From the NCBI GenBank assembly GCA_041634115.1, contig JBFJMD010000001.1, forward strand, positions 1 through 38,299: DNA of 38,299 nt. The letters are read 5' to 3'. A program made the translations under genes and the position numbers. Each line of letters begins with the position of its first letter. The first letter of the stretch is position 1. The DNA comes from Thermoanaerobaculia bacterium (GTDB taxonomy: Bacteria > Acidobacteriota > Thermoanaerobaculia > Multivoradales > JAHEKO01). This document shows, in pieces, positions 637 to 12,288 of this stretch. A model generated the notes under the pieces. That model was not told the DNA's origin, searched no databases, and worked only from the letters and a program-made list of their open reading frames with translations.

Positions 637-3600
637 CTAGGCCTTCCGCTTCCCCTTTCCCTCCCCTTTCTGCTTTTCCTTCCTCTTTTTCTCCTTCTCC
701 TTCACCTTCTCCGCCGCCAGGCTCTCGTCGACTTCCGCCATCCAGGAGCGCGGGTGGCGCGCCTTGTGGTACTCGTTCAGGACCGACTTGAAGAGGTCGC
801 CGAACCGGGCGCGATCGATCCGATGGTAGAACTGCTGGAGCTGTGCGTCGTCGATGACCCTGTGCCACTCCACCCCATGGTCGACGATGAGCCGCAGGAT
901 CGACGCGCGCCCCAGGCCGAGGCGGCGCAGGTGGTCGCGAATCCGTAGAAACGAGATCGAGCGTCCCTTCGCCGTCTTCCACACCGAGGCGATCCCGACC
1001 GTGTACTCGAAGACGACGTTATCCTCGGGCTCTTCCGGGCGGGGCGAGAAGCGAGGAATCGCGCGCAGCCTCTCGGCGGCCCTCGACTTGAGCACGACGA
1101 CCTTCAGGAGATAGACCTCTCCGGCCTTGTTTTCGACCAGCTTGCAGAGCAGGCGGTCTTCGAGGTCGAGGATCTTCCGGCTCTCGCGCAGCTTCCCGAT
1201 CGCCGCCCAGCCGGCCTCGAGCGAAGCTTCGGGAACCTCCAGCCGCTCGGCCCAGACCATGCCGATCTCGAGGCCGAGCCGGCGCTGGCAGAACGTCTGG
1301 AAGCGGGCGCCGTAGGTGCTGGCGCTGATCGACCACGTCTGCCGGAAGGTCCTCGACCACGACCAGTGGAGGAACAGGTTCATCCAGCCGCGGTTGTCCG
1401 GATGGCGCCACTCCCGCTCCAGGTCGAGATCGAGGTAGACGTTCTCCATGAGCTGGATCATGGAGTTGCAGAGGTAAAAGCCCTGGCGTCGCTGCTCGTC
1501 GGTCAGCTTCTTTCTCGTCTTCTTCTCGGCCGGCTCCGGCGCGGACTCCCCTTCCTTTTCGGGGACGACCGGCCGGCCCCGCTTCCACTGCTCGATCTCC
1601 ACGTACATCTCATCGTCGAGGAAGTCGAGTTCGTTCTCCCCCCGCAGACGCTCGAAGATCTCGTCGAGCATCTTGGTGTGACGGGTGAAGGCGGCTTCCA
1701 CCCGCTGGCTGGGCGGGTACCAGGCCTGCCGCAGCTCGACGAAGACGGTTTCGATGTTGCGCTCTTCTCGGGGCATTTCACGGGCGAGCGAGCGCAGCCG
1801 ACTGGGCTCTTTGTCCTCTCCGCCGCGTCGCCGCGGCTCGACTCCGGCCGCGCTGAAGAGCTCGACCGTCTCGTGATACCCGAGCTCGCGGTAGCTCTCG
1901 AACTGCGACTCGCCGAACCACTGGTCCGCGGTCGACTCGTGGGGAAAGTCCGGGAAGCGCCGCTGGTAGTTCTGGAGGTCCTCCGGCTCGTCGCCGGTGA
2001 GCGACGCCTTGAGGTAGACCAGCGTCCCCTTGGGCGCGTTCTCGTCGACCTCCGCGTAGTGGATCGCGCCGACCGCGCAGTGCCAGCGGCTGAAGCCGGT
2101 CGCCGCGTCCTTGCGGATCGGGTCGACGTCGATCTCGATGTCGATGCCGAAGTCGCTTCGGCAGCGGCGGATCGCCCGGCCGAGGGCGGCGAACTCCAGA
2201 TGGGGATCCGCCTCCGCGTCGCAGGCCAGGATGAACCGGCAGCGCCGCCGGACGAGCTCGTAGATCCCCAGATTGTCGAAGAAGCCGCCGTCCGCGAGGT
2301 TCACGAACTTCGATTCCGAGCCCATCGTCCCGGTGAGCTCGCTCAACAGCGCCGTGAGCCCGAAGCCCGGCCCGCGGCCGTCCCAGCCGCGTCGCTTGGC
2401 GGGATTGCGCATCCACCATCCGAGGCGGGCGTTGAAAACGGTGAGGAGGAAGCTCAGGGCCGGTGAGCTGTGGAAGCCCATGTTCGGATTGACCGCCGCG
2501 CCCGAGATCGCCATCGCGGTCCCCAGGGTGATGCCCTTGCCCTTGTTGGCGCGATGGATGTGTCGGAAGCCGCGCCCCTCCTCGCCCCGCTCGCCGCGCG
2601 CCTCTTCGCCCCGCTCGTCGCGCCCCTCCTTGCCCCGGAAGCGCCCGGGATCGAAGCCGTAGTGGAGCGGGGTGAAGAAGAACGAGTTCGCCTTCCGCTC
2701 CTGCCAGGCGAGCTGCTCGCCCGCGGCGAGATTGACCGTGGTGTTGAGGATCGGCAGCGGTCCGCGATAGGGGCTGCCTCCCCCGCCGCCGGGCAGGGTC
2801 GGGTAGATGTCGTGGAGCGGAAAGTCGTCGTCCGGATCGAACCCGGTGAACGGAATCGGGTGGCGGGTCCGGCTGGCCCCCAGATAGGGGCGGATCAGCC
2901 GGTTGCGGTAGAAGAGGTGCATCGAGAACTCGTTGATGTCGACCCGCAGGGACAGCGGCACGGTGACCAGCAGGAGCAGGAAGACGGTCCCCGCCAGCCC
3001 CCGCCAATCGCGGTCGATCGATCTCCCCGCGACGTCGAGCTCGGCCGAGATTGCCTCGAGGTAGCCCTCGGCCTCGCGCGGCTCCTCGCCCCCTTCGAAG
3101 CTCGGCCAGGCCGAGACCTCGGACGAGGCGGGCCGCTCCGCGGAGTGCCCGGTGACGTTGGCGTGGATCTTGTGGATGCCGACGCCGAGCGCCGCGACCA
3201 GGCCGGCCACGAAGACGTAGGGCGCCACGAGCGCCACCAGCTCGACCCAGCGTTTCGAGCCGCGGCCGCCGGTCGCGGGGCTGCGGCCGGCCCAGATTCC
3301 GGCCGCCGTCGACAGCAGCCAGCCGACGACGGCGGTGCCCTTGAGGGTCGTGCCCAACCAGCGCAAGAGCCCGGGGCCGTAGAAGACGACGACCAGCAGA
3401 CCCGCCCAGGCGAGAATCAGGATGCAGAGCCAGCCCCCGAGCCGGCTCCACCATTCCCGATGCTCCTCCTTGAACTGCCGGCCCATCAGGCCGATGTGGA
3501 TCACCGCGGTCAAGATGAAGATCAGGGTGACCGCCGGCGGTCCCCAGATCGTCTGGCGGATCAAGGCGACGACCGAGCTGCCGGTCGTGCCCACGAAGCC

Positions 3601-4746
3601 CCGGAAGAGGCCGAAGAGCGCGGCGCCGCCTCCGGCGCCGGCGACGAGCGCCGGGACCAGCACCCACAGCCAATTCGTGGTCTCCTGGCTCCGATCCCGC
3701 CGGCGCAGGAAGGCGACCACCAGCGCGACGAGCCAGAAGGAGAAGTAGGTCAGGGCGGCGAAGGCCATCCAGCGCCAGATCTCGGTCTCGCCCGGGATCG
3801 AGGCGCTCAGCTCTCCGACGGACCCCGTTCCCTCGCGGGTGAGCCAGGAGAGGCCGTAGGAGGCGAGGACTCCGGCCAAGAAGAGCGGCGCCGCGGCGAA
3901 CCAGAGCACGGCGGGCGTCGACGTCAGGTGGCGGCCCTCGACGGCCCGGCCGCTGTCGTAGTTCTGCGCCACCACCGCGATCGCCATGAGCAGAAGAAAG
4001 CCCGCGAAGGTGAACAGGTGGTAGCCGAGGCTCTGCGGCAGGTCGACGGCGACGAGGAGCCTGGGCAATAGCAGAAGGACGCTCAGGAAGAGCACCACGA
4101 TCGTCAGATTGAGGACGAGATTGCGGACGTAGGTCGCGACCGCGGTCCAGGTGTCCACGCTCAGGGCGCCGGTCTTCGGCGTCAGGTAGTTGCTGAACTG
4201 CCGCAGGAACGTGATCGGCGAGCCGCGCCGGTGGCGCCGCCTCCTCCGGGCTTCGGTCTGCCCCTCGACCTCGCGAGGCAGCTCCCGTTCGACCGCGTCG
4301 ATCTGCTCGCGGTGAATCCAGCCGACGAGCCAGCTTCCGATGTATCCGCCGCCCGAGACCGTCGAGAGATAGTGGAAGGCGCGCAGCAGGCCGACGTGCG
4401 CCAGCGCCTGCAGCACGCCGAGGTTGAACGTCGCGCTGCGGATGCCGCCGCCCGAGAAAGCGAGCCCGACGAGCTGCCGCCGGTGGGCGAGCTCCTGCGG
4501 GGGGCGATCCTCGTTCTCGGGCTTCGCCGCCGCCGGCGGCCCTTCCCTCTCCGAGTCGGGACCGGCGTGGAACCTCCCCTGCTCTTCGAAGAAGTGCAGC
4601 TCCTCCCGCAGCACCTGCGAGAAGGTGTCCGGCGGGACTCCCCGAAACGACTCCAGGAGCTCGTCGAACTTGGTCTCGGCGTAGTCCGGCAGGCCGGCGA
4701 GCTTTCGCCCGAGTTTCTTGAAGCTGCGAAGATTCCAGGCGCTCAT
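637..4746 (-). CDS. Giant (1369 aa) patatin-like phospholipase with a ~10-helix membrane insertion and a long unassigned C-terminal extension
   Basis: Oxyanion motif GLAFSGGGIRSA (aa 95-106). Nucleophile elbow STVSGGGY (Ser131). About 10 hydrophobic helices between aa ~200 and 600. Then INEFSMHLFYRNRLIRPYLGA and the catalytic Asp motif LADGGFFDNLG (Asp819). aa ~970-1369 have no family I can name, apart from an RRLGLG (R-x-x-G-x-G) GNAT-like motif and a Lys/Glu tail. Confidence 0.8.
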   Translation of the reverse strand: MSAWNLRSFKKLGRKLAGLPDYAETKFDELLESFRGVPPDTFSQVLREELHFFEEQGRFHAGPDSEREGPPAAAKPENEDRPPQELAHRRQLVGLAFSGGGIRSATFNLGVLQALAHVGLLRAFHYLSTVSGGGYIGSWLVGWIHREQIDAVERELPREVEGQTEARRRRRHRRGSPITFLRQFSNYLTPKTGALSVDTWTAVATYVRNLVLNLTIVVLFLSVLLLLPRLLVAVDLPQSLGYHLFTFAGFLLLMAIAVVAQNYDSGRAVEGRHLTSTPAVLWFAAAPLFLAGVLASYGLSWLTREGTGSVGELSASIPGETEIWRWMAFAALTYFSFWLVALVVAFLRRRDRSQETTNWLWVLVPALVAGAGGGAALFGLFRGFVGTTGSSVVALIRQTIWGPPAVTLIFILTAVIHIGLMGRQFKEEHREWWSRLGGWLCILILAWAGLLVVVFYGPGLLRWLGTTLKGTAVVGWLLSTAAGIWAGRSPATGGRGSKRWVELVALVAPYVFVAGLVAALGVGIHKIHANVTGHSAERPASSEVSAWPSFEGGEEPREAEGYLEAISAELDVAGRSIDRDWRGLAGTVFLLLLVTVPLSLRVDINEFSMHLFYRNRLIRPYLGASRTRHPIPFTGFDPDDDFPLHDIYPTLPGGGGGSPYRGPLPILNTTVNLAAGEQLAWQERKANSFFFTPLHYGFDPGRFRGKEGRDERGEEARGERGEEGRGFRHIHRANKGKGITLGTAMAISGAAVNPNMGFHSSPALSFLLTVFNARLGWWMRNPAKRRGWDGRGPGFGLTALLSELTGTMGSESKFVNLADGGFFDNLGIYELVRRRCRFILACDAEADPHLEFAALGRAIRRCRSDFGIDIEIDVDPIRKDAATGFSRWHCAVGAIHYAEVDENAPKGTLVYLKASLTGDEPEDLQNYQRRFPDFPHESTADQWFGESQFESYRELGYHETVELFSAAGVEPRRRGGEDKEPSRLRSLAREMPREERNIETVFVELRQAWYPPSQRVEAAFTRHTKMLDEIFERLRGENELDFLDDEMYVEIEQWKRGRPVVPEKEGESAPEPAEKKTRKKLTDEQRRQGFYLCNSMIQLMENVYLDLDLEREWRHPDNRGWMNLFLHWSWSRTFRQTWSISASTYGARFQTFCQRRLGLEIGMVWAERLEVPEASLEAGWAAIGKLRESRKILDLEDRLLCKLVENKAGEVYLLKVVVLKSRAAERLRAIPRFSPRPEEPEDNVVFEYTVGIASVWKTAKGRSISFLRIRDHLRRLGLGRASILRLIVDHGVEWHRVIDDAQLQQFYHRIDRARFGDLFKSVLNEYHKARHPRSWMAEVDESLAAEKVKEKEKKRKEKQKGEGKGKRKA

Positions 4747-4834: not shown

Positions 4835-5866
4835 TCAGAGCCGCGGGCGGCCGAGCCAGAGGACCCAGACCGCCTCTCCCTCTCGCTCGCCGCCGGGCCG
4901 CACCCCGACGCCGATCTCCAGGAAGAACTTGCTGAAAAGGCTCTCCCGGTACTCCGCGCTCGCCAGCAGCGCCTCGACGACGTCGGCGGCCCCCAGCGGC
5001 CCCCACGCCACGATCTCGGCGACGCCGCGGCGCAGATCGGGACGGTAACCGGCGCCGCGCGCCAGCGCGTAGAGGTCCCGCGGCCCCGGCAAGACCTTTG
5101 TGGCGGATCCCGGCGCCCCCACCTCCTCCGCCCGCGACCGCGCGATCCGATCGAGCGTCGGGTCGTGGCGCAGCGGCGCCCGGCCGGCCTCCCGGCGCGC
5201 CTCGTTGAGCCGCTCGACCAGCTCCGCGCCCACCCTCCCCGCGACGGCCGTGAGGTCGGTCTCCTCGAGCGGCACCTCCGCGGCGGCGGCCGGCAGCAGC
5301 CGCTCGATCCCGTAGTCCTCCTGCGACTGCGCCAGCGCCAGGGCGTAGACCGGCACCCCCCGGTAGTCGCTGAAGCCCACCCCGAGATCGCGCACCTCGG
5401 GGTGGAAGACGCTCCGGCGGTTGCGGTCGGCGTGGCGGCCCCAGTCGGCGACCAGCTCCGCGAGCGGCAGATCGGCGTGGGCGAGCTTCTCGGTGACCAG
5501 GCGGGCGTGGTAGCCCTCGCGGTGGACCCAGGTCTCGATCTGGGTCCCGTCGGGGGAGGTGAATCCGAAGTACTCGTGGCGGGTCATGTCGTCGGCGTGC
5601 GCCTGCGCCGCCCGCGACAGCGCGGCGTCGAGGGCGAGCGGCCCGAGGCCGAACACCTGCCGCTGGACGTTGATCAGCTCGAGCAGGTAGGCGCGGGCGT
5701 CGTCGCGGCCGTCTCCGAGCGCCGGCGGCTCGGCGCTCTCGTCGGCGAGCGCGGGCGCTCCGGCCCCGAGGGTCGCCGCCGATGCCGAGAGCGCGGCGAG
5801 CAGGGCGAGCGATCCGAGCGTCGGCCGCCGGCGGCCGGTCCCGGCGCTCGACTTCTTCGCGACCAT
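4835..5866 (-). CDS. Secreted protein with two CAP/SCP/PR-1 (YkwD-like) domains
   Basis: I prefer the internal ATG at 5866 (MVAKKSSAGTGRRRPTLGSLALLAALSASA...ALA): it gives a signal peptide with a twin-arginine stretch. Two repeats of the pattern LINxxRxxxGLxPL...AxxHAxDM / EARREAGRAPLRHDPTLDRIARSRAEE. The longer ORF start at 5980 would overlap the rhomboid gene. Confidence 0.7.
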   Translation of the reverse strand: MVAKKSSAGTGRRRPTLGSLALLAALSASAATLGAGAPALADESAEPPALGDGRDDARAYLLELINVQRQVFGLGPLALDAALSRAAQAHADDMTRHEYFGFTSPDGTQIETWVHREGYHARLVTEKLAHADLPLAELVADWGRHADRNRRSVFHPEVRDLGVGFSDYRGVPVYALALAQSQEDYGIERLLPAAAAEVPLEETDLTAVAGRVGAELVERLNEARREAGRAPLRHDPTLDRIARSRAEEVGAPGSATKVLPGPRDLYALARGAGYRPDLRRGVAEIVAWGPLGAADVVEALLASAEYRESLFSKFFLEIGVGVRPGGEREGEAVWVLWLGRPRL

Positions 5867-5909: not shown

Positions 5910-6566
5910 TTGATTCCGCTCCGCGACACGATTCCCACCCGGCGCGTGCCGGTCGTGACCTGGACCCTGATCGCCGTCAACCTCGTCGTCTTCCTCTTCG
6001 AGCTGGCGCAGACGCCGGAGGACTTGACGCGCCTCTTCCAGACCCGCGGACTGGTGCCCGCCCGGCTGGCGCAGCTCGGCCGCTACGGCGGGCTCTCCAC
6101 CCTCGTCACCAGCACGTTTCTCCACGGCGGGTTCTTCCACCTGCTGTCGAACATGTGGACGCTGTGGATCTTCGGCGACAACGTCGAGGACCGCATGGGG
6201 CCGGGGCGCTACCTCGCCTTCTACCTCGGCTGCGGGGTGGCCGCGGGGGCCATCCACGCGCTCTTCGACCCCGCCTCGGTGGTGCCCACGATCGGCGCCT
6301 CGGGGGCGATCGCCGGCGTCCTCGGCGCCTACTTCATGCTCTTCCCGCTGGCCCGGGTGGTGACCCTGGTACCGATCGTCATCTGGCCGCTCTTCATCGA
6401 GGTGCCGGCCTTCTTCTTCCTCGGCTTCTGGTTCCTGTCGCAGCTCCTGAGCGGCGGCCTCGCCGTCGCCGGCGTCGCCTCGGAGGCGATCGCCTGGTGG
6501 GCGCACATCGGAGGGTTCGTGGCCGGCGTCCTGGCGCACCGGGCGCTGCTGCGCCGGCGCCGGTGA
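5910..6566 (+). CDS. Rhomboid family intramembrane serine protease
   Basis: TTG start giving MIPLRDTIP. Motifs HLLSNMWTLWIFGDNVE, GASGAIAGVLGAY (catalytic GxSG) and AHIGGFVAGV (catalytic His). Six hydrophobic helices. Confidence 0.85.
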   Translation: MIPLRDTIPTRRVPVVTWTLIAVNLVVFLFELAQTPEDLTRLFQTRGLVPARLAQLGRYGGLSTLVTSTFLHGGFFHLLSNMWTLWIFGDNVEDRMGPGRYLAFYLGCGVAAGAIHALFDPASVVPTIGASGAIAGVLGAYFMLFPLARVVTLVPIVIWPLFIEVPAFFFLGFWFLSQLLSGGLAVAGVASEAIAWWAHIGGFVAGVLAHRALLRRRR

Positions 6567-6675: not shown

Positions 6676-8421
6676 TCAGAACCGCGCCGCGGCGTCGCCG
6701 TCGAGCATCGCGCCGCGGACCAGGGGGATCGGGGGGCCGCCGTAGGAGAGGAAGCGGTCGTGGAACCGGCGCAGCGCCTCGCGGCCGCCGTTCGCCGCCG
6801 TCCAGTCCTCGCGCAGGCGCAGGATCATCAGCTTGCCCATCGTGTAGGAGAGGTACGCGGGGTCGAAGGTGCCGCGGGCCGCCTGCTGGCGGGCCGCCGC
6901 CGGGCTCTGGAACGCCTTCTCGCGGAACAGCCGCTCCGACTCCCCGAGCGTCATCTCGCCGGCGTGGAGCCCGATCGCCGAGACGAAGCGGACGTCCCGC
7001 AGCAGCGCGTTGAGAAGCTGCCCGACGCGGACCCGCGGATCGCCGTCGCCCAAGCCCTCCTCCCACATCAGCTCCTCCGCGTAGTGGGCCCAGCCCTCGG
7101 CGAAGGCGTAGCCGACGAAGAGCCGGCCCACGGCCGACGGCGCCCGGTTGGAGTGCAGGAATTGCAGGAAGTGCCCGGGCCAGACCTCGTGCGCCGAGAT
7201 GAAGAGCAGGTCCACCTCGCCCAGCAGGTAGCCCTGGCGCTCCTCTTCGCTCCAGGCCGGGTCCGGCGGCGCGATGTAATAGACGGACGGCAGGTCCTTC
7301 TCGAACGGCCCCGGGATGTCGATGTAGGCGGGGTTCCAGCGATTGAAGGGGGGCGCCTCCTCGACGAGGGCCTCTTCGCCGCCGTCCGGGATCCCCACCC
7401 GTCCCCCCTCCGCCACGATGCGGCGCAGCTCCGCGACCTGGCGCCGCGCCGCCGCCACCGGGTCATCCGGCTTTTCCGCGAGCACCGTCCGCACGCACTC
7501 CTCGACGGCGACGCCGGGCGCCAGCTCGCCGCAGGCGCGGCCGAGCGCGGCGAGGTTGCGCGCGAGGTCCTGCTCGCCGATCGCCGAGAGCTCATCGAGG
7601 CCGGTCTCCACCCGCTCGGTCGCCGCCAGCATGCGGGCGAAGCGGTCGGGTCCCAGCGCGAAGCCGGCGCTCGCCGAGCCCCGGGCGCCGAGGTCGGCGG
7701 CGAGCTCCTCGAGCGCCGCCACCGCGCCCCGGTTGGCGCGCTCGAGGTCCGCGCGCAGCTCCGAGTCGTCGACGCTCGCGAAGATGCCCGCGACGTCGTC
7801 GCGCAGGTAGGTGACCAGGCCTCCGAAGTACTGGACGGCGAAGTCGGCGAAGGTCTCCGGCAGCTCGGTCTCGAGATTCGCCCGCGCCTGGGCCGCCGCC
7901 CGCGGCAGGTTCTCGGCGAAGCGGGCGAAGGCGCGCAGGCGCTCGGGCAGCGGCGCGTACGGCCGCGTGAGGTAGAGGCTGGGGCTGAAGGCGTCCGCGT
8001 AGTAGATCGGGTTGCGCTGCGGCCAGCGCGCGTCGCGGAGCCAGAAGAGCTCGCCCTCGAGCTGCGCCAGGAGGTGGTCGCGCTCGAAGGCGCGGCCGTC
8101 GTCGAGGCCCTCGGGGTCGAAGGCGAGAGCGGCCGCGCGGCGCTCTTCGAGCCAGCGCGGCCACGCCGCGAGACCCTCGGGGCTCCAGTCGGGGAAGCGG
8201 CCGTCGTGCTCGTGCCGCCCCCAGTCCGCCGCCGCGTGGGGCTGGCGCTCGCAGTAGCCGTCGACGAAGTCCTCGATGAAGCGGTCCCACTCCATGGACA
8301 CCTCCCGGGTCGCATTCTCTCCCACTGCGGCGCCGGGCGGCCCCGGGCGCTCGCAGGCCGCGAAGACGGCGGCGACCGCGACGAGCGCCGCGACGAGCGC
8401 CGACCGCGCGGCGCGGCTCAC
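6676..8421 (-). CDS. DUF885 family (metallopeptidase-like) lipoprotein
   Basis: GTG at 8421 gives VSRAARSALVAALVAVAAVFAAC (signal peptide plus lipobox-like Cys). The body matches the DUF885 pattern, including ISAHEVWPGHFLQFLH (HExxPGH). The 1299-aa ORF in the track is a read-through of the upstream gene in another register. The start overlaps the upstream stop (GTGA). Confidence 0.75.
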   Translation of the reverse strand: MSRAARSALVAALVAVAAVFAACERPGPPGAAVGENATREVSMEWDRFIEDFVDGYCERQPHAAADWGRHEHDGRFPDWSPEGLAAWPRWLEERRAAALAFDPEGLDDGRAFERDHLLAQLEGELFWLRDARWPQRNPIYYADAFSPSLYLTRPYAPLPERLRAFARFAENLPRAAAQARANLETELPETFADFAVQYFGGLVTYLRDDVAGIFASVDDSELRADLERANRGAVAALEELAADLGARGSASAGFALGPDRFARMLAATERVETGLDELSAIGEQDLARNLAALGRACGELAPGVAVEECVRTVLAEKPDDPVAAARRQVAELRRIVAEGGRVGIPDGGEEALVEEAPPFNRWNPAYIDIPGPFEKDLPSVYYIAPPDPAWSEEERQGYLLGEVDLLFISAHEVWPGHFLQFLHSNRAPSAVGRLFVGYAFAEGWAHYAEELMWEEGLGDGDPRVRVGQLLNALLRDVRFVSAIGLHAGEMTLGESERLFREKAFQSPAAARQQAARGTFDPAYLSYTMGKLMILRLREDWTAANGGREALRRFHDRFLSYGGPPIPLVRGAMLDGDAAARF

Positions 8422-10514
8422 CAGCGCGGGTGGCTGGCGATGAGCGCCCGCGTCTCCTCCGAGTCGAGGGGGCGCGAGAAGTAGAAGCCCTGTCCGTATT
8501 CGCACTCGAGCTTCTGCAGCCGCGCGAGCTGGTCCGGGGTCTCCAGCCCCTCCGCCGCCACCTGCATGCCGAGGCTGCGGGCGAGCGAGATAATGGTGCC
8601 GACGATCTGCGAGCGGTCCTCGTGGTCGTTCATGCCGGAGACGAAGGAGCGGTCGATCTTCAGGGTCTGCGTCGGCAGCTGGTGCAGGTAGCGCATCGAG
8701 GAGAAGCCGGTGCCGAAGTCGTCGATGTAGAGCTGCACCCCGAGCTGACGCAGCTCCCGCAGCCTGGCGATGACGCCCTCGACGTTCGACATCAGCAGCC
8801 GCTCGGTGACCTCGATCTGCAGCCGCGCCGGGTCGAAGCCGGTCTGGTAGAGGATCACCTCGATGCGCTCGATCAGGTCGGCCTGGCGGAACTGCTTCGC
8901 CGACAGGTTGACGCTGACGCCGAGCGTGCGGGTGAACGGGAGCTGCCGGTGCCAGGTGGCCATCTGCCCGCAGGCCTCGCGCATCACCGCCCAGCCGATG
9001 GGGACGATCAGGCCGGTCTCTTCCGCCACCTGGATGAAGTCGGCGGGCAGCACCAGACCCCGCTGCGGGTGCAGCCAGCGCACCAGCGCCTCGAAGCCCT
9101 CGAGCTCTCCCGACTCCAGGCTCACGATCGGCTGATAGTGCAGCCGGAACTCGCCGTTCTTGAGCGCCCGCCGCAGCTCGGCCTCCATGTTGAGCAGCTC
9201 GGTGGCGCGGTGGTGCATCTCCTCGTCGAAGATCGCGTGCCGCGCCTTGCCGAGGTACTTGGCCCGGTACATGGCGGTGTCGGCGTCGCGCAGCAGGTCC
9301 TGCGGACGGTCGTAGCCGGTGGAGCTCAGCGCGATGCCGATGCTGGCGGTGGTCGAGACCTCGTGCCCCTTGAGATCGAACGACTTGCGCAGCTCCTCGT
9401 GAATGCGCTCGGCGATGCGGGTCGCGTCGCTCGGGCTCTCGATGCCGTTGGCCAGGATCGCGAACTCGTCGCCGCCCAGGCGGGCCACGGTGTCGCCGGG
9501 CCGCAGCAGGGTCTGCAGCCGCAGGGCGACCCCGATCAGGAGCTGATCGCCGATCGCGTGCCCGAGGCTGTCGTTGACGGCCTTGAAGCGGTCGAGATCG
9601 AGGAACAGCACGGCGAAGCGGTACTCCTCGCGCCGCTTGGCCTGCGCCAGCGCGATCGCCAGCCGGTCCATCAGCAGCGCCGAGTTGGCGAGGCCGGTCA
9701 GGGCGTCGTGCATCGCGTCGTGCAGGAGCTGCTGCTCGGTCATCTTGCGGGCGTCGATGTCGGTGAGCGAGCCGGCCATGCGATAGGCGACGTCGTTCTC
9801 GTCGCGCACCGCGAGGGCGCGGGCCAGCATCCAGCGGAACTCCCCGGCCGCGGTGCGCAGCCGGTGCTCCGTCTCCAGGTGCGGGGTGCGCCCGGTCAGG
9901 TGCGAGCTGATGTCCTTCTTGAGCTTGTCGAGGTCCGCCGGGTGGACGCGCCCGAACCACTCGTCGACGCGATTGCCGACCTCCTCGTTCTCGTAGCCCA
10001 GCATCTCCTTCCAGCGCTTCGAGAAGAAGACCCGGTCGCTCACCAGGTTCCAGTCCCAGACCCCGTCCTTGGCGCCGCTGACCGCCAGCTCGTAGCGCTC
10101 GCGGGTCTCGCGCAGCGCCTCCTGGGCGCGCTTGCGCTCGATGCCGTAGCGGATGGAGCGCACCAGCGAGTCGGTGTCCACCTTGCGCTTGACGAGATAG
10201 TCCTGGGCGCCCTCGCGCACCGCCTGCAGCGCCAGGCCCTTGTCGTCGAGCCCGGTCATCACGATGATCGGCACGCTCGGGACGCAGGCGTGGATCGACT
10301 GGAAGGTGTCGATGCCGTTGCTGTCGGGCAGGGTGAGATCGAGCAGCACGATGTCGGCGGCCGACTGCGGCAGCCGCTCGAGGGCGGTGCCGACCCGGTC
10401 GGCGCGCTCGAGCTCGAAGGCGGAGAGCTCCGATTTCGAGAGGTAGCGCTCGACCAGGTGGGCGTCGCCGGGATTGTCTTCGACCAGGAAGACCTTGATC
10501 GGCTCCTGGCTCAC
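8418..10514 (-). CDS. Response regulator receiver-PAS-GGDEF-EAL protein (c-di-GMP synthase/phosphodiesterase)
   Basis: REC: KVFLVEDNPGD...DIVLLDLTLPDSNG. PAS: WDWNLVSDRVFFSKRWKEMLGY. Intact RLGGDEFAIL. Intact EALVRW, DDFGTGFSSM and QGFYFSRP. GTG start overlapping the upstream stop. Confidence 0.9.
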   Translation of the reverse strand: MSQEPIKVFLVEDNPGDAHLVERYLSKSELSAFELERADRVGTALERLPQSAADIVLLDLTLPDSNGIDTFQSIHACVPSVPIIVMTGLDDKGLALQAVREGAQDYLVKRKVDTDSLVRSIRYGIERKRAQEALRETRERYELAVSGAKDGVWDWNLVSDRVFFSKRWKEMLGYENEEVGNRVDEWFGRVHPADLDKLKKDISSHLTGRTPHLETEHRLRTAAGEFRWMLARALAVRDENDVAYRMAGSLTDIDARKMTEQQLLHDAMHDALTGLANSALLMDRLAIALAQAKRREEYRFAVLFLDLDRFKAVNDSLGHAIGDQLLIGVALRLQTLLRPGDTVARLGGDEFAILANGIESPSDATRIAERIHEELRKSFDLKGHEVSTTASIGIALSSTGYDRPQDLLRDADTAMYRAKYLGKARHAIFDEEMHHRATELLNMEAELRRALKNGEFRLHYQPIVSLESGELEGFEALVRWLHPQRGLVLPADFIQVAEETGLIVPIGWAVMREACGQMATWHRQLPFTRTLGVSVNLSAKQFRQADLIERIEVILYQTGFDPARLQIEVTERLLMSNVEGVIARLRELRQLGVQLYIDDFGTGFSSMRYLHQLPTQTLKIDRSFVSGMNDHEDRSQIVGTIISLARSLGMQVAAEGLETPDQLARLQKLECEYGQGFYFSRPLDSEETRALIASHPRW

Positions 10515-12046
10515 CTCGCCTTCCCTTTGCTCTTGCTGGCGCTGCGGTCGCGCGGGCGGGGCGCCGCCGGCTCACCGCCCAGCGGCACGGAGAAGTAGAA
10601 GGTCGAGCCCTTGCCGGGGGCCGAATCCACCCAGATCCTCCCCCCCTGTCGCTCGACGATGCGCTTGCAGATGGCCAAACCGATTCCGGTGCCCGAGTAC
10701 TCGGGGTGGAGCCGCTTGAAGATCGTGAAGATGGCTTCCGCGTCTTTGGGCTCGATTCCGATCCCGTTGTCGGAAACCGAGAGGATCCACTCGTCTTCGC
10801 CGCGCTGGGCGCCGATGCGGACCCGGGGCGGCTGCTTGCCGCGGAATTTTACCGCGTTGGCGATCAGGTTGCGAAAGACCTGCTCGAGGTCCGAGGGATC
10901 GCCCAGCACCTTGGGCAATTCGTCGCGCCGGATCTCGGCCTCGCTCTCGTCCACCGCCGACTGCAGGCTGCGGATGGCGCGGTCGGCGATCTCGCCGAGA
11001 TCGCAGGCGGTGAAGCGCCGGTCGCCGGCGCTCGCGCGCGCGAACTGCAGCAGGTCCTCGACCAGGTCGCGCATGCGCCGGGTGCCGTCGAGCACGAAGC
11101 CCGCCGCCGTCTCGGCCTCCTCCGACAGCTCGCCGGGCAGCTCCTCGTCCAGGATCTGGGTGAACTTCTCCACCATCCGCAGCGGCTCCTGCAGCTCGTG
11201 CGAGGCGACGGAGGCGAACTCCACCAGGTCGGAGTTGGAGCGCTCGAGCTCCTGCAGCCGCGCGACCAGCCGGCCCTCGTGCTCTTTGAGGTGTCCGACG
11301 TTCTGCACCAGCACGTCGACGACGATGTCGCCGTCCACGTCGAGCAGCATCACCTCCGTCAGGTTGAGCCACACCGTGCTGCCGTCCGGGCGCTCGAACT
11401 CCACGACCCGCGCCTGCAGCTCGCCCGCGGTGTTGAGCTGCTGCATCAGGTCGGCGCGGGTCTCCGCCCGGAAGTAGTGAATCGGCAGGTCGACCCGCAG
11501 CGCCTCCTCGACCGAGTCGACCCCGAGCAGGCGCAGGAGCGCCGGGTTGGCCTCGATCAGGCGCTGGTCGGGGGTGGAGCGGAAGACGCCGACGTTGGCG
11601 CGGTCCAGCAGCGTCTGCAGCCAGGGCTCGCTGCGCGCCACGAGCCGATCGGTGGTCGCCCGGTCGATCGCCTCGCGCACCGCCGTCGCCAGCCGCAGGT
11701 AGTTCTTCGAGGACTTGATCAGGAAGTCGGCGAGGCCCGCCTTCATCCCGGCGACCGCCAGCTCCTCGTCCTTGACGTGGGTGAAGACGATGACCGGCAC
11801 CTCGGGGTGGCTGTCGTGCACCGCCTCGAGGACCGAGAGGCCGTCCGACCAGCTCAGCTGCTGCTCGGTGACGATGAGATCGACGCCGCGCCCGGCGAGC
11901 GCGGTGGCGAAGCCCTTGGCGCTGTCGATCTCCAGGATCCGCGACTCGGGCAGCTCGCGCGAGATCACCACCGACGCCAACCCGCGGTCCTGCGGATCGT
12001 CGTCGATCAGGAGGATGCGGGGGCCGGCGCTCAGGGCGGCCCCCAC
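10511..12046 (-). CDS. Hybrid sensor histidine kinase (N-terminal REC, PAS, HisKA, HATPase_c)
   Basis: RILLIDDDPQD...DLIVTEQQL (REC), H-box SHELQEPLR, N-box NLIANAVKF, DNGIGI, GTGIGLAICKRIV. The ORF extends to an ATG at 12280, but codons between 12047 and 12280 are AT-rich at the third position and look non-coding. I prefer the in-frame GTG at 12046 (VGAALSAGPRILLIDDD). The start is uncertain. Confidence 0.8.
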   Translation of the reverse strand: MGAALSAGPRILLIDDDPQDRGLASVVISRELPESRILEIDSAKGFATALAGRGVDLIVTEQQLSWSDGLSVLEAVHDSHPEVPVIVFTHVKDEELAVAGMKAGLADFLIKSSKNYLRLATAVREAIDRATTDRLVARSEPWLQTLLDRANVGVFRSTPDQRLIEANPALLRLLGVDSVEEALRVDLPIHYFRAETRADLMQQLNTAGELQARVVEFERPDGSTVWLNLTEVMLLDVDGDIVVDVLVQNVGHLKEHEGRLVARLQELERSNSDLVEFASVASHELQEPLRMVEKFTQILDEELPGELSEEAETAAGFVLDGTRRMRDLVEDLLQFARASAGDRRFTACDLGEIADRAIRSLQSAVDESEAEIRRDELPKVLGDPSDLEQVFRNLIANAVKFRGKQPPRVRIGAQRGEDEWILSVSDNGIGIEPKDAEAIFTIFKRLHPEYSGTGIGLAICKRIVERQGGRIWVDSAPGKGSTFYFSVPLGGEPAAPRPRDRSASKSKGKAR

Positions 12047-12288
12047 GCCGCCCGGTCCGCGCCGGAGCGCGGCCGCGGCGGGTTCGACTGGGTAGACGGG
12101 TCGCGAGTCATACGCCGGGTTCCACTGGTGCCACCGATCGCCTGGGTGCTGGCCGAAGCCGCCGTATGATAGCGCAAAACGGAGATCGAAAAAACTCGAT
12201 AAATGCAAATAGGTCAATGCTTTACTCGCACTTGCACAGTCCGCCCGAGGTTGCGCCGGAGAGAGATATCCGCTATGCATCGGGGGCC

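Follow-up and report, generated by a model that had tools for sequence, protein, structure and literature searches.

Known members of the patatin family are soluble, secreted, or separately anchored, with PlpD held by a POTRA domain and a β-barrel and NTE by an N-terminal transmembrane (TM) segment. To our knowledge, the bacterial patatin-type enzymes described so far are soluble, secreted, or outer-membrane proteins, and we know of no patatin member whose catalytic fold is interrupted by a polytopic domain. In the eukaryotic relative cPLA2, a cap is inserted between the nucleophile and the catalytic Asp, as reportedly described by Dessen et al. in 1999. The DNA analyzed here, a stretch of 38,299 nucleotides from a Thermoanaerobaculia bacterium (assembly GCA_041634115.1, contig JBFJMD010000001.1, positions 1 to 38,299; hereafter the window), encodes a 1369-residue putative lipase in which a cPLA2-like fold is interrupted by an integral membrane domain; at least 700 clusters at 50% identity also carry a fusion to a helical and a GNAT-like module (Table 1). 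The best explanation, to which we give a probability of roughly 0.6, is a resident inner-membrane acyl-hydrolase or transacylase of phospholipids or lysophospholipids, with a GNAT-like module that binds a coenzyme A (CoA) thioester and acts in regulation or acyl transfer. The substrate, the direction of catalysis, the GNAT-like ligand, and a physiological role in membrane lipid turnover or remodeling are what we infer within this explanation.

The catalytic elements were examined in two alignments of full-length family members (n = 24 and n = 70). Residues S98, G99–G101, R103, S131, G132, G133, D819, and G820 are invariant in 24 of 24 and 70 of 70 homologs, together with dozens of further positions in both alignments. 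Ser131 and Asp819 are separated by 688 residues. The sequence GGGIRS corresponds to the GGGxR signature of the patatin/cPLA2 superfamily, and LADGGFFDNLG, in which N825 is invariant and G821 nearly so, carries the D-G-[GA] Asp motif. An earlier reading of the bare sequence (the original prediction) had listed the 1369-residue open reading frame, GGGIRS, Ser131, Asp819, a RRLGLG motif, and a Lys/Glu tail, all of which were recovered at the positions it gave; the loss of catalytic residues on alignment that would speak against a lipase was not seen, every one being invariant in the 70 homologs.

Sequence comparison places the catalytic domain closest to cPLA2. A search of PDB sequences ranked cPLA2 delta and alpha first, with an expect value (E) of 0.43 for the single sequence and 0.0023 for the family profile, and HMMER aligned the aa 91–200 stretch with the GGGxR and GxSGS motifs of cPLA2 delta, with T-V-S-G-G in register with G-I-S-G-S. 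In Pfam, the window protein matched PLA2_B (PF01735) at 18.6 bits (E 7e-4; gathering cutoff 23) over aa 93–150 only, and gave no match to PF01734 (Patatin; gathering cutoff 27.7 bits) at E ≤ 1. Homologs score 28–39 bits to PF01734, just over threshold and over the first ~60 profile positions only. Scans of the window protein against NCBIfam and PADLOC returned no match.

Structure prediction joined the two halves of the catalytic domain. The model was obtained for P0059, a 1196-aa full-length homolog that is 43% identical to the window protein, using the 70-sequence alignment as AlphaFold2 (AF2) input, and reached a predicted local distance difference test score (pLDDT) of 85.7 and a predicted template modeling score (pTM) of 0.72. 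Its best Foldseek matches in the PDB are human cPLA2 alpha (1cjy) and delta (5iz5 and 5ixc), with a probability of 1.00 over 400–546 columns, the 1cjy match to the whole model spanning 424 columns. PlpD matches the model only locally, and in the Foldseek and PDB searches VipD, too, gives no more than a local or weak match. Because the P0059 model is confident and cPLA2 provides its best PDB matches, both sequence halves are predicted to assemble into one patatin/cPLA2-superfamily domain, which in the model is structurally nearer cPLA2 than patatin proper. Hydropathy, AF2, and Foldseek thus agree with the earlier proposal of a lipase fold built from two halves around a ~400-aa polytopic insertion. 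The label "patatin-like" given with that proposal stands for the superfamily, whereas the modeled catalytic domain lies closer to cPLA2 than to patatin itself. The superfamily assignment is already known, because databases name the relatives "patatin-like phospholipase family protein" or "PNPLA domain-containing protein".

In common with eukaryotic cPLA2 (groups IVA and IVD), the window protein has the GGGxR motif with its Arg, an xxSG[GS] elbow, and a Ser-Asp dyad whose nucleophile and Asp are separated by a large insertion. Unlike cPLA2, it is bacterial, lacks a C2 domain, and has ten integral helices in place of Ca2+-dependent peripheral docking; cPLA2 in turn has no counterpart to its C-terminal helical and GNAT-like modules. 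Pfam detected no C2 domain in the window protein, whose N-terminus is a 90-aa helical leader containing a conserved helix with F42, V45, and E49 in the alignment and a helix at residues 10–29 in the homolog model. The missing C2 domain and the score below the Pfam cutoff set it apart from the group IV cPLA2 enzymes, to which it does not belong. With patatin proper (PF01734: patatin, ExoU, VipD, CapV, PlpD, and RssA), it shares the superfamily, GGGxR, the Ser nucleophile, and DGG, but not a PF01734 match. A separate feature of the C-terminal catalytic half is a charged insert of the ERGEEARG type (RGKEGRDERGEEARGERGEEGRG). Its coding sequence is a 24-nt tandem repeat, for which Tandem Repeats Finder gave 2.9 copies and 86% matches, and the insert is situated in a loop where the alignment has no majority residue.

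Between the catalytic halves, Kyte-Doolittle hydropathy detected nine strong hydrophobic segments (aa 216–602), and a weaker tenth at ~468–490 was read from the sequence and its alignment to the model. The P0059 model contains ten long helices in the same block, consistent with the ~10 TM helices that the original prediction had placed between the dyad residues. In the model, the chain exits the catalytic fold past the post-nucleophile helices, passes through the ten helices, and returns via the INEFSMHxFYRNRL helix, part of a conserved INEFSMHxFYRNRLxRxYLGAS element that opens the C-terminal catalytic half. A strongly conserved cytoplasmic loop, GLMGRxFxExxREWWSRLG (aa ~419–437), lies inside the membrane insertion. 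The insertion is ancestral to a broad group, because distantly related short forms (837 and 1020 aa) encoded on Rhizobium and Azospirillum megaplasmids show the same split arrangement, with GGGIRS, STVSGGGY, a hydrophobic helix block, an NxFSLHxLYRNRL helix, and a DGG motif in that order.

The orientation of the protein was derived from loop charge. Over the 70 homologs, the density of Lys plus Arg in the loops is 0.166 on the catalytic-domain side versus 0.064 on the other side. Hydropathy found no hydrophobic segment before aa 216, which means that the protein lacks a signal peptide. Together with this lack, the loop charge bias gives an N-in, C-in topology with ten TM helices and a cytoplasmic active site. 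No export signal, POTRA domain, or β-barrel was detected in the window protein by hydropathy or Pfam, unlike in ExoU, VipD, and the type Vd protein PlpD. Since the N-terminus, the C-terminus, and the catalytic domain are all placed in the cytoplasm, the protein reads as a resident membrane enzyme and not as a secreted effector.

The original prediction had suggested a candidate effector or membrane-remodeling enzyme that may form an operon with a secreted double-CAP-domain gene, which can be taken to mean a secreted or host-directed effector. The CAP gene shares the strand of the lipase gene and lies 88 nt upstream of it; the gap contains no terminator-like site, and the pair is kept in a sister lineage. 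We surveyed the neighborhoods of 84 related loci, none of them from the organism of the window. By tblastn, the CAP gene and a rhomboid protease gene are adjacent only in that sister lineage (L005, with a lipase 59% identical to that of the window) and absent from the other 83 loci, so the proposed co-occurrence fails as a family feature and a CAP partnership was rejected as such. Because the CAP, rhomboid, DUF885, and GGDEF-EAL genes of L005 are all syntenic with the window, the pair there represents ordinary vertical conservation of a whole block. The term "candidate effector" does not hold either for a protein with no signal peptide, ten TM helices, and a positive-inside bias that directs its catalytic side to its own cytoplasm. 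The secreted-effector reading is scarcely credible and already largely refuted. The signal sequence of the CAP/YkwD-like protein itself (GRRRPTLGSLALLAALSASAATLGAGAPALA) is rich in Arg and may belong to the twin-arginine translocation (Tat) type; the gene for this protein is divergent from the rhomboid protease gene (5910-6566, +), with a gap of only ~43 nt.

The TM block is homologous in 81 of the 84 loci and has neither a Pfam family nor a confident Foldseek match in the PDB. Its size, its ten helices, its retention in those loci, and weak, low-probability Foldseek matches to secondary transporters could also be read as a bundle that forms the functional core, as a lipid transporter or scramblase, with the lipase-like domain serving as a regulatory or non-catalytic lid. 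We consider this very improbable, since all catalytic residues are invariant, which is unexpected for a pseudo-enzyme, and the transporter matches stay below a probability of 0.25. Within the block, invariant and near-invariant positions are occupied almost exclusively by Gly, Pro, Trp, Phe, and Leu; the charged residues that are conserved there, R430 and R435, belong to the cytoplasmic TM6-TM7 loop and lie outside the TM helices. Among distant relatives, the TM region is also the least conserved part of the protein.

Beyond the catalytic domain, no Pfam, NCBIfam, or PADLOC model covers aa 970–1369; scans of Pfam, NCBIfam, and PDB sequences thereby bear out the earlier statement that this region has no obvious family. 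An AF2 model built from aa 960–1369 of the window protein (pLDDT 88.6, pTM 0.81) revealed two modules. Conserved sequences in the long subfamily include WYPPS and HPDNRGWMNLFxHWSW, both in module A, and FRIQDHLRxMGLAR. Module A, modeled mostly with pLDDT >90, has no confident match in Foldseek or among PDB sequences; its helical-repeat matches in Foldseek have a probability <0.1. Module B follows the order β1-α1-α2-β2-β3-β4-α3-β5-α4, and ~35 of its top 50 Foldseek PDB matches are GNAT acetyltransferases, with probabilities up to 0.97, including 3fyn (0.97), AAC(3)-Ib (4yfj), RimI (7n1l), and GCN5.

The RRLGLG sequence of module B lies directly between β4 and α3, at the very place of GNAT motif A, and has the form of that motif, [QR]-x-x-G-x-[GA]; the pattern R-x-x-G-x-G/A is invariant, G or A occupying the last position throughout the family. 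R1274, G1277, R1280, R1268, E1196, and G1251 are invariant, and H1272 is nearly so. Module B shares with the GNAT superfamily its predicted topology, the R-x-x-G-x-G/A loop after β4, and a GNAT-dominated Foldseek list. It differs by its large inserts, high root-mean-square deviation (rmsd), and the absence of a Pfam GNAT match; moreover, it always follows the novel helical module, in fusion with a membrane lipase. A GNAT assignment at the sequence level was dropped, as the Pfam, PDB profile, and hhalign matches are sub-threshold and confined to motif A; the hhalign comparison of module B with RimI gave a probability of 5%. The earlier suspicion of a GNAT motif at RRLGLG is thus supported by the fold match and by the invariance of the motif but not by any sequence model. 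At the fold and motif levels only, module B is predicted to be GNAT-like with an intact pyrophosphate-binding loop, through which it may bind a ligand.

The distribution of the C-terminal modules was determined by an HMMER scan with aa 985–1340 over 1.84 billion representatives, which recovered 1348 clusters (50% identity) at E ≤ 1e-3, 700 at 1e-10, and 285 at 1e-30. Because the module always occupies the C-terminus of ~1200–1600-aa proteins among the best 150 of the 1348 clusters, or occurs there in fragment-like shorter sequences, it appears exclusive to this lipase family. Among the 84 related loci, ~35 lack a C-terminal module, ~16 have the helical module only, and ~29 have both; these classes are clade-specific yet interleaved on a rough neighbor-joining tree. 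The C-terminal region consists of two separable, optional modules gained or lost by clade. At the extreme C-terminus, the Lys/Glu tail is specific to this lineage, the 65%- and 59%-identical sister proteins having different C-termini.

MprF-type enzymes, which combine a polytopic inner-membrane domain with a cytoplasmic GNAT-fold lipid-modifying domain, offer a conceptual analogy only. MprF is absent from the top Foldseek matches, performs different chemistry, and has no lipase domain.

The GNAT-like module could itself be an active enzyme, using acyl-CoA or the chain released by the lipase to N-acylate lyso-phosphatidylethanolamine, phosphatidylethanolamine, or an amino-lipid head group. The invariant R-x-x-G-x-G/A loop, with R1268, E1196, G1251, and near-invariant H1272, points to a maintained ligand or active site, the fold matches are acyl-CoA N-acyltransferases, and among the best 150 of 1348 clusters the module is fused only to this lipase. 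The cPLA2 family, moreover, includes transacylases and an N-acyltransferase (PLA2G4E). On the other side, no general base or acid can be assigned, many relatives lack the module or carry its helical part only, and the GNAT similarity is marginal by sequence; such a bifunctional enzyme is therefore rather doubtful. An extended form of this proposal seems equally doubtful. In it, a cPLA2-fold hydrolase or transacylase, built into the bilayer by its 10-TM insertion, would be coupled in cis with an active GNAT that depends on acyl-CoA; within one polypeptide, inner-leaflet phospholipids would first be deacylated and then re-acylated or N-acylated, in a Lands-cycle-like or N-acyl-lipid pathway. Among bacterial lineages, this one would also stand nearest to the ancestor of the cPLA2 catalytic domain of eukaryotes.

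In the favored explanation of a resident inner-membrane lipase, the Ser131-Asp819 dyad would hydrolyze lipid acyl groups, with Arg103 present in the GGGxR motif. The chain would leave the catalytic fold ~70 residues after the nucleophile, cross the membrane ten times, and return to complete the fold; because of this path, the active site would stay permanently fixed to the cytoplasmic side of the inner membrane. Soluble relatives dock peripherally, by the C2 domain and cap in cPLA2 and by the membrane-localization domain in ExoU; here the TM bundle would take over that task, and it probably also lets glycerophospholipids or lysophospholipids of the inner leaflet reach the active site. In deacylating these lipids, the enzyme would work as a phospholipase A, lysophospholipase, or transacylase. 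The helical and GNAT-like modules most likely bind a CoA thioester and could either gate the lipase or couple deacylation to acyl transfer. The gene would act alone.

Several observations weigh against this explanation. The window protein lies below every Pfam gathering threshold, and its nucleophile elbow, T129-V-S131-G-G, is not the canonical G-x-S-x-G, the first Gly being replaced. The full-length structural evidence is a model of the 43%-identical P0059 and not of the window protein. For module B, the Foldseek figures are modest (E 6e-3 to 1, target TM-score 0.32–0.5, rmsd 7–10 Å). A Pfam scan of eight module-B fragments gave a best match to Acetyltransf_1 at E 0.12 in one homolog and none for the window protein, and the PDB profile search reached a thialysine acetyltransferase at E 0.23 over motif A only. 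A C-terminal module is missing altogether from about 40% of the sampled relatives, so it cannot be essential to the core reaction. Accessory domains are also present in some relatives: P0027 and P0073 carry an N-terminal PG_binding_1 domain (aa 10–85) with no signal peptide, and P0068 carries a DUF1080/3-keto-disaccharide-hydrolase-like domain (aa 249–398) in its TM2-TM3 loop. Both kinds are usually extracytoplasmic, yet they map to the predicted cytoplasmic side. Finally, a full-text literature search found no paper on a patatin or cPLA2 protein that is split internally by a polytopic insertion or fused to a GNAT.

The family is large and widespread in bacteria. A word-indexed HMMER search identified 7,529 homologous clusters (90% identity) at E ≤ 0.001 among 8,000 candidates scored, which puts the family at more than 7,500 such clusters. 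Relatives with >90% length coverage and ~40% identity occur in Thermoanaerobaculia, Acidiferrales, Bryobacterales, Deltaproteobacteria, Verrucomicrobiota, and Halomonas stenophila, with homologs labeled Thermoanaerobaculia at ~40–48% identity. A scan of one genome per species confirmed at least 593 matching stretches. These cover Gamma- and Betaproteobacteria (Luteimonas, Massilia, Chromobacterium, and a Pseudomonas sp.) as well as Acidobacteriota, Nitrospira, Bacteroidota, Planctomycetota, Methylomirabilota, Gemmatimonadales, and Chlorobiaceae. The phage collection contained no match to the lipase gene, and the plasmid matches are short-form genes on megaplasmids or chromids, mostly non-mobilizable. 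The lipase gene is mostly inherited vertically within clades.

Neighborhood analysis showed no fixed partner. All-against-all clustering of flanking open reading frames found no conserved neighbor in more than 11 of the 84 loci, and nine inspected contexts are unrelated and mostly metabolic or housekeeping. The lipase gene is a stand-alone unit, not part of an operon-encoded system. A divergent dienelactone hydrolase gene, located upstream in two loci, was discarded as a coincidence after tblastn found none elsewhere. One neighbor cluster of seven loci, mostly from Nitrospira, consists of a paralogous lipase directly upstream on the same strand (e.g., L066, 6355-7986, +). This smaller gene encodes GGGSRA and SSVSGG motifs after an N-terminal hydrophobic, possibly lipoprotein-type segment, and the L066 locus and six further loci suggest a lineage-specific pair of cPLA2/patatin-like paralogs.

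The same data bear on a possible role in defense. In such a role, which is the main rival to the favored explanation, the protein would be a latent self-destruct effector for defense or stress, a membrane-held lipase that degrades the cell's own inner membrane upon a danger signal such as phage or envelope damage, in the manner of CapV in the cyclic-oligonucleotide-based anti-phage signaling system (CBASS). Sensing would fall to variable N-terminal domains and to the C-terminal helical and GNAT-like modules. Patatin-type lipases are frequent among defense effectors, with CapV as an example (PMC12480259). The family is patchily distributed over many phyla, its N-terminal additions vary (P0027, P0073, and P0010, the last with a 330-aa extension that has no family assignment), and its C-terminal modules come and go by clade. 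In locus L007, an AbiEii toxin-antitoxin pair and an AAA_14 gene are found close by, and in L008 an adenylate/guanylate cyclase-AAA_16 gene is found ~4.7 kb from the lipase gene. However, no cyclase-plus-effector arrangement occurs in the nine inspected contexts, and, unlike CBASS CapV-type effectors, the window protein has neither a PADLOC match nor a signal-generating or sensor partner conserved in the 84 loci. The mostly metabolic or housekeeping surroundings with no island context, the synteny that remains stable between orthologs only 59% identical, the lack of phage-borne copies, and the location of most plasmid matches on non-mobilizable megaplasmids make a defense function unlikely.

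As far as found, this widespread bacterial family has not been characterized in the literature; the lipocone paper (PMC12419801) mentions patatin only as an operon neighbor. The turnover of phospholipids in the bacterial inner membrane is poorly mapped. If active as predicted, the enzyme would have built-in interfacial activation, with a membrane domain in place of the cap and C2 domain, and would be a candidate source of lysophospholipid, fatty acid, or N-acyl-lipid in many environmental bacteria. It would also provide a bacterial structural counterpart for cPLA2 evolution. Culturable carriers exist in Luteimonas, Halomonas stenophila, Chromobacterium alkanivorans, and Rhizobium, so the predictions are directly testable.

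Table 1. Coordinates of the lipase gene, its predicted domains and motifs, and the adjacent CAP gene; aa, residues of the encoded protein; TRF, Tandem Repeats Finder
Feature	Position in window (nt)	Strand	Basis
Complete coding sequence, 1369 aa, ATG start, TAG stop	637..4746	-	Open reading frame list, public gene calls
N-terminal cytoplasmic leader, aa 1-90	4477..4746	-	Hydropathy, alignment, homolog model
Catalytic domain, N-terminal half, aa 91-200	4147..4476	-	Motifs, HMMER, weak Pfam PLA2_B match
Oxyanion/phosphate motif GGGIRS, aa 99-104	4435-4452	-	Located in translation
Nucleophile elbow STVSGGGY, aa 128-135, with Ser131	4342-4365 (Ser codon 4354-4356)	-	Located in translation
Polytopic membrane insertion, aa 201-603, ~10 predicted TM helices	2938..4146	-	Hydropathy, AF2 model of P0059, loop charge
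Catalytic domain, C-terminal half, aa 604-965	1852..2937	-	Motifs, alignments, Foldseek
Asp819 motif LADGGFFDNLG, aa 817-827	2266-2298	-	Located in translation
Lineage-specific low-complexity insert RGKEGRDERGEEARGERGEEGRG, aa 704-726	2569..2637	-	TRF, translation
C-terminal module A, aa ~985-1160, all-helical	1267..1794	-	Conservation, AF2
C-terminal module B, aa ~1161-1340, GNAT-like α/β	727..1266	-	AF2 topology, Foldseek, motif
Motif-A-like RRLGLG, aa 1274-1279	910-927	-	Located in translation
Lys/Glu-rich tail, 27 residues, aa 1343-1369	640..720	-	Translation
Secreted double-CAP-domain protein, 343 aa in public assemblies, signal peptide	4835..5866	-	Pfam CAP (2 stretches), gene call

The 1369-aa gene call is identical on 16 public contigs of the same organism. 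Around the lipase gene, the content of guanine plus cytosine is ~69%, versus roughly 73–77% over most of the window. The whole 38-kb window contains no transfer RNA or transfer-messenger RNA genes and no Rfam family at the gathering threshold. On the downstream side, the 3' end of a gene for a ClpB-type chaperone (16-624, +) converges on the lipase gene, with 12 nt between the stop codons and no terminator-like hairpin detected between them. On the other side, beyond the rhomboid gene, the region 6676-12280 (-) contains genes for a DUF885 protein, a response-regulator-PAS-GGDEF-EAL protein (8418-10514), and a response-regulator-PAS-histidine-kinase (10511-12280), arranged head to tail. Genes within this region overlap by 4 nt, and the arrangement, which is kept in the sister lineage, looks like an operon for cyclic dimeric guanosine monophosphate (c-di-GMP) signaling.

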